Source: Deltaproteobacteria bacterium
Lineage (GTDB): Bacteria; Lernaellota; Lernaellaia; JACKCT01
NCBI GenBank assembly: GCA_020845895.1
Contig: JADLEX010000125.1
Span: 49,729 to 113,728 of the forward strand
Length of the DNA: 64,000 nucleotides
Reading direction: 5' to 3'
In this document: in pieces, positions 50,961 through 55,119 of the stretch
How the letters are laid out: every line of letters starts with the position of its first letter
Numbering within the stretch: position 1 is the first letter of the stretch
Notes under the pieces: generated by a model
Seen by the model: only the letters and a program-made list of their open reading frames with translations
The model's database searches: none
Told to the model about the DNA's origin: nothing
Position numbers and translations under genes: made by a program

Positions 50961-51005
50961 CTACTGCACCGTCGGCCGTCCCGGGGCGCGTTTGGCGGGG
51001 GGCGG
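50961..51005. repeat. Direct repeat copy A (~45 bp) duplicating the 3' end of lon (reverse strand reads [15 protein letters not shown]-stop)
   Basis: CTGCACCGTCGGCCGTCCCGGGGCGCGTTTGGCGGGG compared with copy B at 52661-52700: about 37 of 39 bases identical. Confidence 0.8.
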
Positions 51006-51066
51006 CATTTTGTCGGAGTGGTGCGATCTTGCACAAAACTAAACTCTGAGTTAATGTTTGTGCGCG

Positions 51067-51747
51067 ATGCCGAATCGATCTGCACAGACACCCCGACCCG
51101 CTTGGAGCGCGCTATACGAAACGGCGGCGGCGCAGTCGGGCCTCTTCACCGCGGCGCAGGCCGGAACCGCGGGGTACTCGCCTCAACTGATCGCGAAGCA
51201 CGTCGCCGCCGGGCGATTCGTCCGCGTGCGCCGGGCGATCTACCGGTTCGTCCACTTTCCGCCCGGCGAAAACGAAGACCTCGTGGCGATCTGGCTTTGG
51301 TCCGAGTGCACGGGCGCGTTCTCGCACGAAACCGCGCTCTTTCTGCACAACCTGTCGGACGCGATGCCGTCGCGCGCCCACCTCACGCTCCCGACGGCGT
51401 GGTCACATCGACGCCTCCGGGTGCCGACGGGACTCTTGGTGCACCACGCCGATTTGACGAAGTCGGATCTTGCCTGGGTCGGCCCCGTTCCCGTGACGAG
51501 CGCCCGGCGCACCGTCAACGACTGCGCGGTCGCACGTGTCGCGCCGGACATCGTCCGTGACGCGTTCGAGCAGGGCGCGAATCGCGGACTATTTCGGCGC
51601 GATACGCTTCCCGACGTGATCGACTACCTGAAGCGGTTCTATTCGGTCTCGCGCAGTCGCTCGGGACCGCGCTTCGGGTCGTCCGCTTCGAGTCGAAAAG
51701 GGGCGAGGTCGGCGTCAACGCGCATGATCCTCCGGCGTCCGAGATGA
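51067..51747 (+). CDS. abiEi: Type IV TA/abortive-infection antitoxin AbiEi (transcriptional regulator)
   Basis: AbiEi_4-like N-terminus (YETAAAQSGLFTAAQA...LIAKHVAAGRFVRVRRAIYRF). The stop overlaps the abiEii start (ATGA). Confidence 0.7.
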   Translation: MPNRSAQTPRPAWSALYETAAAQSGLFTAAQAGTAGYSPQLIAKHVAAGRFVRVRRAIYRFVHFPPGENEDLVAIWLWSECTGAFSHETALFLHNLSDAMPSRAHLTLPTAWSHRRLRVPTGLLVHHADLTKSDLAWVGPVPVTSARRTVNDCAVARVAPDIVRDAFEQGANRGLFRRDTLPDVIDYLKRFYSVSRSRSGPRFGSSASSRKGARSASTRMILRRPR

Positions 51748-52646
51748 ACGTGAGAACTTACAGGACGCCGGAAGCCTTCAAGATGGCGTTGGAGCAGAAG
51801 CTTCGGTCGCGATCGTCGAGTGGCGGCGATTTCGCGCGCCGTCGCCAACTCCTCGTCTTTGATCGATTCCTCGCGCGCGTAGTCGCAACGATGGGTGACC
51901 GCGTCATTCTCAAGGGCGGACTCGTGATCGAACTCCGGATCGAACGGGCCCGTACCACGAAGGACATCGACCTGAGCGTGATGGGCGATCCGGGCGAGAT
52001 TCTCGAACAACTCCGGGAAGCCGGACGGCTGGACCTCGGCGACTTCATGACATTCGAAATCTCGCCGGACGCCGGGCATCCCGTCATCCAGAACGAAGGG
52101 ATGCGCTATGACGGGCTGCGTTACCGAAGCGAAACGCGCCTTGCCGGAAAGATCTACGGCCAACCCTTTGGAGTCGACGTCGCGTTCGGCGACCCGATCT
52201 TCGGCGAACCCGACGTCGTCCTGACGGAAGATGTGCTGAATTTTGCGGGCGTCGCCCCGCCCGCCGTGCGTCTTTATCCCGTCGAAACGCAGATCGCCGA
52301 AAAACTGCACGCGCTGACCATGCCGAGAGATCTCGAAAATTCGCGCGTGAAGGATCTTCCCGACATCGCTTTGCTCGCTTTGGTGCGGGAGATTGACGAA
52401 ACCGTTCTGCGCAAAGCGCTGGAATTGACCTTCGGGTATCGCGCCACGCACACGATCCCGACCTCCGTTCCCGAGCCGCCCGATTCGTGGGGCACCATCT
52501 ACGCGCGCATGGCGATAGAGGACCAACTCCCTTGGGCTTCCTTCTTCGATCTCGTCTCCGCGGTCGGGCGCTTCATGGATCCGATTCTCTCCGTGAAACT
52601 GCGGCGGCGATGGGATCCCATCCGCTGGGAGTGGTCCGCGAACTGA
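51744..52646 (+). CDS. abiEii: Nucleotidyltransferase toxin AbiEii/AbiGii (DUF1814)
   Basis: VILKGGLVIELRIE...TKDIDL motif region typical of AbiEii nucleotidyltransferases. Confidence 0.75.
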   Translation: MNVRTYRTPEAFKMALEQKLRSRSSSGGDFARRRQLLVFDRFLARVVATMGDRVILKGGLVIELRIERARTTKDIDLSVMGDPGEILEQLREAGRLDLGDFMTFEISPDAGHPVIQNEGMRYDGLRYRSETRLAGKIYGQPFGVDVAFGDPIFGEPDVVLTEDVLNFAGVAPPAVRLYPVETQIAEKLHALTMPRDLENSRVKDLPDIALLALVREIDETVLRKALELTFGYRATHTIPTSVPEPPDSWGTIYARMAIEDQLPWASFFDLVSAVGRFMDPILSVKLRRRWDPIRWEWSAN

Positions 52647-52659
52647 CGAACGCGCGCCC

Positions 52660-55119
52660 TCACTGCACCGTCGGCCTTCCCGGGGCGCGTTTCGCGGGGC
52701 GGATCGGCTTCGGTTTCCCTGCGGATTTCTTCGCACCGGAACGGCCCGAGCCCGCTCCCGTCGCGCGCTTTTTCGGCGGGCGTTCGAGCGCGAGGGCGAG
52801 CGCCTCGTCCACGGACGTCACGAGGTGGATTTTCACGGTCTTTTTCACCTCGGGCGGCAGTTCCACCAGATCCTTCTGATTGTCCTTGGGCACGATCACG
52901 TCGCGGATTCCGGCCCGATGCGCCGCGAGGATTTTTTCGCGCAGGCCACCGATCGGCATGACGCGCCCGCGCAGCGTGATCTCGCCGGTCATCGCGACGC
53001 CCGCGCGCGACGGCACGCCCGACAGCGTGGAGACGAGCGCGGTGACCATGGCGACGCCGGCGGACGGTCCGTCCTTGGGCGTCGCTCCCGCGGGCACGTG
53101 CAGGTGGATGTCATTCTTCGCGAAGAAGTCGTCGCGGATCGCGAAGTCGGCCGCGCGGCGCCGCGCGTAGGTCATCGCGGCCTGCGCCGATTCGCGCATC
53201 ACCTCTCCCAGGTGGCCGGTGAGCGTGAGCGCGCCTTTGCCGGGCACGGCTTGCGCCTCGATGTGCAGGATCTCGCCGCCGACGCTCGTCCACGCGAGCC
53301 CCGTGGCGAGGCCGACGCGAAGGCCGGGCGCTTCGTCTTCCTCGTATTGATATTCGGCGGGTCCGAGTAATTTTTCGACCTGCGCGGGCGTGATCTTCAC
53401 CGACTTCGCCTTGCCCTCGCCGATCTGCCGCGCGACCTTGCGAAACACCGATCCGATGGCGCGCTCGAGATTCCGCACGCCCGCCTCGCGGGTGTAGTTT
53501 TCGATGAGCGCGGTCAGCGCCGGCGTGCCGATCTCGATGTGTTTGGGCCTCAGACCGCACGCATCGACCTGGCGCGGCACGAGGTAGCGTTCGGCGATGG
53601 CGGTTTTTTCGAGCGACGTGTACCCCGGGATGCGGATGATTTCCATGCGGTCGTGCAGCGGTCGCGGGATCGGGTCCTCGGTATTCGCCGTGCAGATGAA
53701 CAGCACGCGCGACAGGTCGAAGGGCACGCCGAGATAGTGATCGGTGAAGGAGTTGTTCTGCTCCGGGTCCAGCACTTCGAGCAGCGCCGACGACGGGTCG
53801 CCGCGAAAATCCGAGCCCAGCTTGTCGATCTCGTCGAGCATGAAGACCGGGTTGTTCGCGCCCGCCTGCTTGAGCCCCTGGATGATCTTGCCCGGCAGCG
53901 CTCCCACATATGTGCGCCGATGGCCGCGGATCTCGGCCTCGTCGCGCACCCCGCCCAGCGAATGCCGCACGAAGGGCCGACCCATCGCCCTCGCGATCGA
54001 GCGACCCAGCGAGGTCTTGCCCACGCCCGGAGGGCCGACGAAGCACAGGATCGAGCCGCGCACCGTGCCCTTGAGCCGCGCCACGGCGAGGAATTCCAGA
54101 ATGCGGTCCTTCACCTTTTCGAGGCCGTAGTGGTCTTCGTCCAGGATCTTCGCCGCCGCGCGCAGTTCCAGCGAATCCTTGACGCGCTTGCTCCACGGCA
54201 GATCGACGATCCAGTCGAGGTAGGTGCGGATCACGCCGGCTTCGGCTGAGTCGCCGTGCATGTGGCCGAGGCGTTTAAGCTGCTTTTCGGCCTCTTCCTT
54301 CACCGGCTTGGGCAGCTTCATCTTCGTGAGCTTTTCGCGAAGCTGGTCGAGTTCGACCTCGCGGTCGTCCAGATCGCCCAGCTCCTTGCGGATCGCCTTG
54401 AGCTGTTCGCGCAGGTAATACTCGCGCTGGCTCTTGTGGATGCCCTCGCGCGCCATGTTTTCGATGCGCGCCTGCGCGTCGAGCAGCGCCAGTTCGCGTT
54501 CCAGATGTCGACGCACGAGCTTGAGCCGCTCGTCGGGGTCATCGGTTTCGAGAATCTCCTGCGCCTGCGGAATCTTGAGATTCAGGTTGCTCGCGGCCAC
54601 GTCGGCCAGGCGCCCCGGATCGCTGATCGACTCGACGAGGTCCACCACCTCCATCGGGATCGACTTGCCCATCGACGCGACTTTTTGCAGGCCCTCGGTC
54701 ACCGTGCGCATCGTCGCTTCGCGCTCGATGCTTTCGTCTTCGGGCTGCGTCTCGGGGATGGGCACGATGTGGGCCTTCAGGAACGGCCGCGTCTGCGTGA
54801 AATCGTCGAGCCGGATTTTGGAAACGCCCTGTACGAGGATCTTGATGCGCTCTTCGGAGAGCTTGACCATGCGCATGATCGTGGCCGCCGTGCCGACTCG
54901 ATACAGGTCGTCAGGCATCGGGTCCTCGGTCTCGATCTCGCGCTGCGTGACGACGGCGATCATGCGGTCGCCCGCGAGCGCGGCGTCGATCGCCGCCGAC
55001 GAAATGTCGCGCCCGACGACCAGCGGGATGATCATGTATGGAAACACCACCACGTCGCGCAGGGCGAGCACGGGAAGTTCGGAAGGCACCTGGATCGTTT
55101 CGGGCATCGCGTCTTGCAT
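52660..55119 (-). CDS. lon: ATP-dependent Lon protease
   Basis: Lon N-terminal domain, Walker [10 protein letters not shown], and catalytic PKDGPSAG. Confidence 0.9.

Follow-up and report, generated by a model that had tools for sequence, protein, structure and literature searches.

An AbiE-type toxin-antitoxin module, consisting of the genes abiEi and abiEii, lies between lon and a convergent lipoprotein-like gene in a 64,000-nucleotide (nt) stretch of a genome catalogued as Deltaproteobacteria bacterium (GCA_020845895.1, contig JADLEX010000125.1, forward-strand positions 49,729 to 113,728). This whole 64-kb stretch is referred to as the window, and positions are numbered within it unless another sequence is named. 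The module is bracketed by two direct copies of the 3′ end of lon, each of which matches a different relative at the sites where the two differ. The reading that we tentatively favor, to which we assign a probability of roughly 45%, is that these copies are two lon-tail alleles that were combined in one chromosome when DNA of a relative, already bearing the cassette, was spliced in, and that the repeat was not made by an integrase. Many chromosomal defense and toxin-antitoxin cassettes have no genes of mobile elements in their vicinity, and the route by which they arrive is an open question. The present site offers three natural alleles (one empty and two occupied, of which one has the 47-nt duplication and the other lacks it), which makes the mechanism testable, and the divergence among the three suffices to ask where each copy of the duplication originated.

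The core of the repeat is a 36/38 match between positions 50963-51000 (copy A) and 52662-52699 (copy B). When up to three mismatches are allowed, the core occurs at these two places in the window, and shuffled sequences are expected to yield none; intragenic repeats aside, the two copies are the sole high-identity long direct-repeat pair in the window. Comparison with an empty site in a sister genome, described below, sets the full extent of the duplicated target at 47 nt, comprising nine intergenic nt, the lon stop codon and the last 12 lon codons. Copy A (50954-51000, 47 nt) contains the nine intergenic nt, a relic of the stop codon (TAG on the minus strand, 50961-50963) and a relic of the 12 codons, and its minus-strand reading frame is still lon-like. 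Copy B (52652-52699, 48 nt), which has one inserted C in addition to the nine intergenic nt, is the true end of lon and carries the functional stop codon (TGA on the minus strand, 52660-52662). The copies are identical at 43/48 columns of the extended alignment (Smith-Waterman z=21). A first-pass annotation, made by a reader who saw the sequence without database searches, had proposed direct repeats of ~45 bp around the cassette with copy B as the end of lon, a lon-like tail still legible to its stop on the reverse strand of copy A, and exactly two ATGA-coupled genes between the copies. All of this is borne out, respectively by the alignments (47/48 nt in full extent), by minus-strand translation, and by the open reading frames (ORFs) with their Pfam and PADLOC matches.

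The insert between the copies (51001-52651, 1,651 nt) contains a putative palindromic operator, abiEi and abiEii, and no further genes. It starts 27 nt ahead of the operator, ends 5 nt past the abiEii stop codon, and occupies what in the empty site is a 12-nt gap between the convergent stops of the lipoprotein-like gene and lon. The 27 nt at its left edge (51001-51027) form a filler of unassigned origin between copy A and the conserved cassette. The 5 nt at its right edge (CGAAC, 52647-52651) make up, together with the abiEii stop codon, the right junction TGACGAAC. At 63.2% GC, as compared with 64.5% for the window, the composition of the insert is not anomalous. The circle produced by an excision would be expected to read …GTTTCGCGGGG joined to GGCGGCATTTTG….

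The empty site resides in L081, a contig of GCA_023382855.1 that was reached by a protein search with the Lon of the window, via P0001 (98% identical). A Lon-based scan of genome contigs had returned relatives of at most 59% identity among the matches listed, and the close relatives came from the protein search. The gene order in L081 is that of the window, namely an HD-domain sensor protein (SBP_bac_3, PAS, HD_5/HD), Hsp20, lon and the convergent lipoprotein-like gene. At the junction there are no AbiE genes and a single, uninterrupted copy of the 47-nt sequence, and the convergent stops are 12 nt apart. By blastn, L081 6111-6157 aligns both to 51000-50954 and to 52698-52652 of the window. 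An empty site of precisely this kind, with one copy of the repeat and lon followed by the lipoprotein gene, had been predicted by the first-pass annotation. Its broader claim, that the duplicated lon 3′ end marks an integration that regenerated its target, stands in part: the insertion/deletion polymorphism, the duplication and the regeneration of lon are evident from L081, but an integrase is unsupported. In public gene calls, lon of L081 (3679-6150) is split into products of 657 and 158 amino acids (aa); the DNA reads as one ORF of 823 aa, and the “partial” Lon P0001 is therefore an artifact of gene calling or annotation.

A third allele is present in L094 (GCA_964586775.1) and L095 (Logan SRR13076506), which are independent assemblies of identical structure. 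Three genomes of this clade were found in the databases searched, with the lipoprotein-like protein as query. L094/L095 encode the closest other AbiEii (P0122, 68% identical to that of the window), and their gene order is cstA, lipoprotein-like gene, abiEi, abiEii and a partial, convergent gene with an alignment to the 3′ portion of the window's lon. The right junction is common to the window and L094, running from TGACGAAC through the intergenic bases into the lon tail. Copy A, the left copy of the repeat, is absent from L094/L095; the lipoprotein-like stop codon and the operator are separated by 21-24 nt in L094 versus 77-80 nt in the window, the filler is not conserved, and homology between the window and L094 restarts at 51028. 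Because L094/L095 carry the module without copy A, the duplication is no obligatory by-product of the module's presence.

These alleles also bear on the most trivial explanation of the repeat, that it reflects chance similarity, an assembly artifact, or an old local duplication with no connection to the insert. All of the sequences compared come from metagenome-assembled genomes (MAGs), which is the point in favor of an artifact. Against it, zero matches are expected by chance and the alignment score given above is far from random, so that the lack of significant similarity envisaged as a refutation by the first-pass annotation does not apply. Moreover, the empty and occupied alleles derive from independent assemblies that are 6-10% divergent throughout, L094 and L095 agree with one another, and no relative displays the duplication without the insert, which was the other arrangement named in advance as counterevidence. 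We regard an explanation of this type as extremely improbable.

By its pattern of divergence, the locus is a recombination mosaic. Core genes yield the tree ((window,L081),L094). Nucleotide identity in the lon 3′ region is 93.8% for window-L081, 89.5% for window-L094 and 91.2% for L081-L094; the corresponding values for cstA are 93.8%, 90.1% and 89.9%, and the synonymous divergence (dS) of the flanking core genes is 0.23-0.25 for window-L081 versus 0.39-0.41 for window-L094. The lipoprotein-like gene departs from this tree, with dS values of 0.81 for window-L081, 0.71 for window-L094 and 0.44 for L081-L094 that make the window the outlier, and its product is 68% identical to the L081 ortholog versus 98% for Lon. 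The two cassette genes, compared between the window and L094, also lie above the flanks' range of 0.23-0.41, at a dS of 0.55 for abiEi and 1.62 for abiEii. The stop codons of cstA and lon are the points at which the identity profiles change over. Since the stretch from the lipoprotein-like gene through abiEii is far above the dS of its flanks, DNA of a more distant relative must have been imported here. A derivation of the window's lipoprotein-like gene from a second paralog in L081 was considered and rejected (30% versus 68% identity).

A change of ancestry can likewise be located at the edge of the repeat itself. Throughout the 38-nt core and on to position 46, copy B and L094/L095 have the same sequence, and L081 differs from copy B at six sites in that core. 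To the right of the core, the window tracks L081, and L094 differs at ~11/40 sites. A phylogenetic breakpoint is placed at 52693-52708, to the left of which all six informative sites join the window with L094 and to the right of which 62/76 join it with L081; expressed as support for L094 and L081, respectively, the counts are 6:0 in the core and 14:62 in the remaining lon 3′ region (Fisher p=1.1e-4). Copy A carries G16/G32, the L081 state at both of the core positions that distinguish the copies, where copy B carries T16/C32, and the spacer adjoining copy A (GGCGAGCGCG…) is of the L081 type. Copy A, copy B and the L081 copy translate identically, every difference among them being synonymous in lon, and the in-frame stops have been kept in both copies of the window. 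A duplication newly made in place would begin as two identical copies, contiguous with the resident lon. Because each copy instead matches a different relative, the changes bear the mark of coding constraint and ancestry switches at the right edge of copy B, we read the repeat as two alleles and not as a fresh duplication.

The same sites can be set against a de novo origin, in which a staggered break of ~47 nt or a replication template switch would have created the duplication in an ancestor shared by all three genomes. A small deletion would later have removed copy A from L094, and L081 would either predate the event or have lost the module between the repeats. Such a history could account for the fact that the window and L094 have the right junction TGACGAAC in common, which points to one ancestral insertion, and for a tree that puts the module in the outgroup as well as the window. 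The G16/G32 state and A-type spacer of the L081 copy look as if they came from copy A after recombination between A and B, the divergence of 5/48 between A and B fits an age near the window-L081 split, and events of this class are documented for restriction-modification (RM) genes. However, copy A would have lost its coding role at the time of the event, and yet its stop is kept and the six changes that separate A and L081 from B are all synonymous, an outcome with a chance of ~0.27^6 under neutrality. In addition, at both variable sites the two copies agree with different relatives, which from an identical start needs parallel mutations, and an age beyond the L094 split predicts ~8-9 changes in copy A, as opposed to the five observed. 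A de novo duplication seems unlikely.

In the reading favored here, the DNA would have been supplied by a relative that already carried the module beside lon, and would have consisted of the operator, abiEi, abiEii, the junction and the donor's own lon tail, thus including the last 12 codons of lon and nine intergenic bases. This DNA would have been joined to a chromosome with an empty site in one of two ways. The first is a single (Campbell-type) crossover of a circularized fragment inside the 47-nt homology, for which the circle could form via GGGGCG(G), a sequence found at either end of the segment concerned in alleles of the L094 type. The second is a homologous exchange at the tail combined with an illegitimate join at a G-run, where …GGCGGGG would be linked to GGCGGCATT…. 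In either case, the incoming tail (copy B) would become the lon terminus, and the resident tail (copy A) would not be replaced but shifted to the other side of the insert, probably through the action of host recombination and repair enzymes. One feature that fits an element bringing its own lon tail is that copy B equals the tail of the cassette genomes, and copy A is like that of the empty-site sister. In turn, recombination between the repeats could remove the module precisely and restore an intact lon, which gives the module a built-in route of loss. L081 might accordingly be an ancestral empty site or a product of such recombination; the presence of the module in the outgroup would favor loss, and the all-synonymous L081 tail would favor a tail that has always been functional.

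Several observations weigh against this account. The order of events rests on three genomes of the clade. If the lon body of the donor was L094-like, the right crossover took place within only ~14 nt of identity, which is short for RecA. A segment of ~80 nt, consisting of the last ~28 nt of the lipoprotein-like gene, the spacer and copy A, is L081-like (~10% diverged) and sits between two divergent blocks, so that more than one exchange is needed. The L081 copy has four private synonymous changes in 38 nt, above its lon average, and the G-run at the left joint is composed of six G where a simple joint predicts four. To these is added a 46-nt island of identity that is hard to explain by co-inheritance.

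This island spans 52662-52707 in the window and 6915-6960 in L094, and it is set between strongly diverged flanks (abiEii dS 1.6; adjacent lon ~25% different). Within it, ~15 synonymous sites are unchanged, and roughly five changes would be expected at the lon rate. A recombination site and a recent gene conversion are the candidate explanations. The first of these would account for the island naturally, which keeps alive a model of site-specific integration, whereby the module would be a minimal integrative cassette or a remnant, with an attP that mimics the lon tail and a tyrosine recombinase acting in trans, in the manner of cis-mobilizable elements (CIMEs). In addition to the direct repeats flanking the insert and the single copy at the empty site, this model can draw on the association of copy B with the cassette, since its identity in both cassette genomes despite diverged flanks is what an att core would show, and on the mapping of the crossover to the last few core bases. 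The toxin-antitoxin pair could then be the deletion-resistant part of a decaying element.

Other features of the locus do not accommodate such a model readily. Pfam identifies no integrase, recombinase, transposase or resolvase among the ~50 ORFs of the window, insert included. There is no space for arm sites, the gap between abiEii and the right repeat being only 5 nt and that between the left repeat and the operator 27 nt. The core is without dyad symmetry, and the repeat region folds no better than shuffled sequences (z -0.6 to +1.2). None of 15 other AbiE loci contains the core sequence, which does not occur outside the clade in the loci compared; its identity in the window and L094/L095 concerns one and the same locus, and a clade-specific lon tail makes a poor target for a mobile element. 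Furthermore, L094 is without an attL, a second cassette flanked by direct repeats (L096, below) has an unrelated repeat, and 47 nt of identity that include nine non-coding nt exceed what is needed to regenerate lon. The first-pass annotation had offered a decayed integrative element or a mobilizable cassette without an integrase; the insert indeed encodes none, but there is no sign of a larger element or of an integrase system, and the search that it suggested for further att-like cores and a cognate integrase came up empty in the loci compared and the window, respectively. Integration by an enzyme acting in trans is considered doubtful.

Additional types of mobility were considered and rejected. 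A transposon or insertion sequence is not in keeping with a 47-nt duplication, a lack of transposase and a lack of terminal inverted repeats, the best match between the ends of the insert being 7 nt, which equals the shuffle mean. An integron gene cassette would call for an attC-type fold and an integrase, and the repeat region has no such fold and the window no such gene. The fold scores likewise speak against a structured RNA or terminator in the repeat, and neither a tRNA nor an Rfam family was detected in the window. A plasmid or phage vector was set aside on finding no phage match and reference plasmid matches of ≤35% identity. With respect to a Xer/dif-type site, which was judged by eye only, the core is GC-rich and no AT-rich spacer was seen.

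The module itself is an ordinary, self-contained, non-autonomous AbiE system that encodes no recombinase. Its first gene, abiEi (51067-51747, plus strand), encodes an antitoxin and transcriptional regulator of 226 aa with an N-terminal winged helix-turn-helix (PF13338, E=2.1e-9, above the cut-off; PADLOC AbiEi, E=1e-63 over residues 9-190). The second, abiEii (51744-52646, plus strand), encodes a 300-aa toxin of the DUF1814 nucleotidyltransferase family (PF08843, E=1.1e-30; PADLOC AbiEii, E=2.1e-83 over residues 3-299). The antitoxin gene comes first, and its stop codon overlaps the start codon of the toxin gene in an ATGA at 51744-51747. By inspection, the AbiEii translation shows KGG, DIDL, VDVAFGD and AEKLHAL, which resemble the GG, DxD, D and KLxA motifs of nucleotidyltransferases. 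P0121, which is named AbiEii/AbiGii at NCBI, is 100% identical to the AbiEii of the window, and the closest homologs apart from it are ~65-68% identical and belong to uncultured Myxococcota, Acidobacteriota and “Deltaproteobacteria”. Exact-sequence look-ups with the Lon and AbiEii of the window and with P0121 yielded no recorded contig. By homology, AbiEii is expected to arrest growth via nucleotidyl transfer, and AbiEi to neutralize AbiEii and to repress the operon at the palindrome upstream. Relative to L094 (window 51067-52646 versus L094 5321-6903), the two genes differ greatly, abiEi having ~80-86% nt identity and abiEii ~58-74% at the dS values given above. That abiEii is so much more diverged suggests that it was exchanged separately from abiEi or that the toxin gene is under different pressure.

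Immediately upstream of abiEi is an imperfect palindrome with 21-nt arms (51026-51068, plus strand) that abuts the ATG. The same arrangement, TGCACAAA…TAAC…GTTA…TTTGTGC, adjoins the abiEi start codon in eight loci of the subfamily that lie in unrelated contexts (window, L094, L096, L102, L085, L089, L091 and L092), and this retention marks the palindrome as a conserved regulatory element and putative operator. The conserved AbiE unit begins at a -35-like box, which is part of the motif TTGCAC-N17-TAATGT (51029-51057) inside the palindrome. The first-pass annotation had assigned the cassette its own AT-rich promoter at this motif. The motif is present and conserved as part of the palindrome, but it matches the sigma-70 consensus at only 3+3 of 12 positions and a promoter scan gives no call, so that it may, at most provisionally, be taken for the promoter. 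Given that the operator abuts the abiEi ATG, the abiE mRNA is probably leaderless or nearly so.

Similar comparisons can be extended to other cassettes of the subfamily. In a set of Myxococcota MAGs (L096-L101, AbiEii 65% identical), an imperfect direct repeat of ~44 nt (L096 5323-5366 and 6930-6973) brackets the cassette; it is identical at 35/44 positions overall and 27/31 in its core (Smith-Waterman z ~9) and bears no sequence relationship to the lon tail. Its left copy ends 57 nt ahead of the abiEi ATG, versus 67 nt in the window, and the cassette converges on tRNA genes for Arg, His and Arg (7056-7484, minus strand), the nearest of which is 82 nt past the right copy. This candidate target duplication speaks against one att site peculiar to lon and in favor of recurrent insertion with long duplications. 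Such a repeat is found in one of the 15 other subfamily loci (L096-L101), the rest having nothing above shuffles, and a metagenome scan with AbiEii yielded nine loci, none with a significant flanking repeat. As for genomic settings, L102 (1-12906) is a toxin-antitoxin islet in which two AbiEi/AbiEii pairs, AbiEi_2 and a HigB-like toxin with a helix-turn-helix antitoxin occur within 12 kb, together with an rve_3 fragment and a phage-type integrase. The second-closest AbiE cassette (P0123, 66% identical; L103 783-4903, L104) adjoins phage tail tape-measure and baseplate-like genes, and the subfamily therefore also occurs in prophage-like contexts.

A more ambitious proposal would have the AbiE cassettes of this subfamily be minimal mobile units, each defined as the operator from the -35-like box, the two genes and almost nothing after the stop, that insert past the 3′ ends of convergent genes with target duplications of ~45 nt by a dedicated mechanism without an integrase in cis. 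The 46-nt island would then be the recombination site, and the 47-nt repeat of the window, the ~44-nt repeat of L096 and the 46-bp duplications known from RM genes would be products of one ruler-like process. We consider this to be a long shot.

Of the genes that flank the insert, lon (52660-55119, minus strand) is intact and encodes 819 aa with the Pfam domains LON_substr_bdg, AAA, Lon_lid and Lon_C. The lipoprotein-like, BNR_4-like gene, taken from the ORF list, occupies 48654-50948 on the plus strand (~764 aa; stop codon at 50946-50948, convergent with lon), and a 1274-aa ORF at 47124-50948 is an over-extension that overlaps cstA (46894-48573). Pfam reports CstA for 46894-48573 and no match for 48654-50948, and the L081 and L094 orthologs of the latter have faint BNR_4 matches. 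L081 (6163-10542) possesses an additional, 30%-identical lipoprotein-like paralog and a 129-aa gene (~2.2 kb), neither of which is present in the window or L094.

A second insertion/deletion near lon, of ~2.9 kb (window 57790-60697 versus L081 941-1017), has no flanking repeat, and the duplication is therefore not general to the insertions and deletions of this genome. It contains genes for a 731-aa protein with ten DUF4379 treble-clef zinc-finger repeats (58463-60658, minus strand; period 207/414 nt) and a 115-aa Asp-rich protein (58069-58416, minus strand). Elsewhere in the window, a DUF5131 gene (41218-41937; phage Gp37/Gp68-like, E=1e-101) resides among ORFs without Pfam matches at 39.8-43.2 kb, which is possibly another accessory segment. 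There is also a gene for DprA, a DNA-processing protein of natural transformation (9724-10860), which is compatible with acquisition by uptake, though DprA is widespread.

With regard to its genes, the module is comparable to the AbiE systems of Lactococcus lactis and Streptococcus agalactiae, toxin-antitoxin and abortive-infection systems of type IV (recently proposed as type VII). Shared features are a winged-helix AbiEi that serves as antitoxin and repressor, a DUF1814 nucleotidyltransferase as AbiEii, a gene overlap and promoter-associated inverted repeats. The module of the window is only distantly related to those systems in sequence, and its operator abuts the start codon.

In terms of its site, the insert invites comparison with genomic islands and CIMEs, which tyrosine recombinases integrate into tRNA or protein genes at their 3′ ends; CIMEs, as in Streptococcus thermophilus, are without an integrase of their own. 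As in these elements, the target has its 3′ end in two copies, of which the one brought by the element restores the gene and the resident one comes to lie across the insert from it. In contrast to them, the window has no integrase, arm regions or tRNA, the target tail is poorly conserved and clade-specific, and the core is not reused. Homology-facilitated illegitimate recombination and Campbell-type single-crossover integration of foreign DNA are known from laboratory transformation, and, to our knowledge, they are not established routes for toxin-antitoxin cassettes. The combination of one homologous anchor, here the lon tail, with a non-homologous join would explain why the insert brings a copy of the anchor with it, as well as the direct repeat and the switch in ancestry at the anchor, although the anchor in the present case is very short (14-47 nt).

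The closest documented phenomenon, and a better one than integrase-mediated att recombination, is the “insertion with long target duplication” described for RM genes by Kobayashi's group (Furuta, Abe & Kobayashi, 2010, PMC2853133), a class for which Nobusato et al. (2000, Gene 259:99) is also cited. Duplications in that class measure 46-423 bp, mobility genes are absent, and some of the repeats overlap the 3′ ends of genes, as in Haemophilus influenzae, where 46-bp repeats overlap a gene's 3′ end by 2-15 bp (PMC2853133). Judged as Furuta et al. (2010) defined the class, the insert of the window is a complete gene system of less than 20 kb (1,651 nt) without a mobility gene, its repeat is longer than 30 bp (47/48 nt) with both copies aligning to one copy in L081, and within the window that repeat is neither tRNA nor dispersed. 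The likeness thus extends to a small, addiction-type unit and a unique direct repeat that is single when the site is empty. The differences are that the 47-nt repeat covers 38 nt of lon plus its stop, as opposed to the 2-15 bp of gene overlap in H. influenzae, that the cargo is AbiE, and that the copies are of demonstrably different ancestry; in the literature searched, we found for this class neither a toxin-antitoxin example nor an analysis of the ancestry of the copies. For RM genes, the process has been hypothesized to depend on breaks that the restriction enzyme makes in DNA (PMC2853133), an activity that a nucleotidyltransferase toxin cannot supply. That a toxin-antitoxin pair of this type shows the same scar argues that the process is generic and not dependent on a restriction enzyme. 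If the reading favored here is true, long target duplications would be scars of one-ended or single-crossover recombination with the DNA of an occupied relative, independent of any restriction enzyme, and not of staggered cleavage. In its mode of insertion, the AbiE module beside lon is a member, with toxin-antitoxin cargo, of a described but mechanistically unsolved class.

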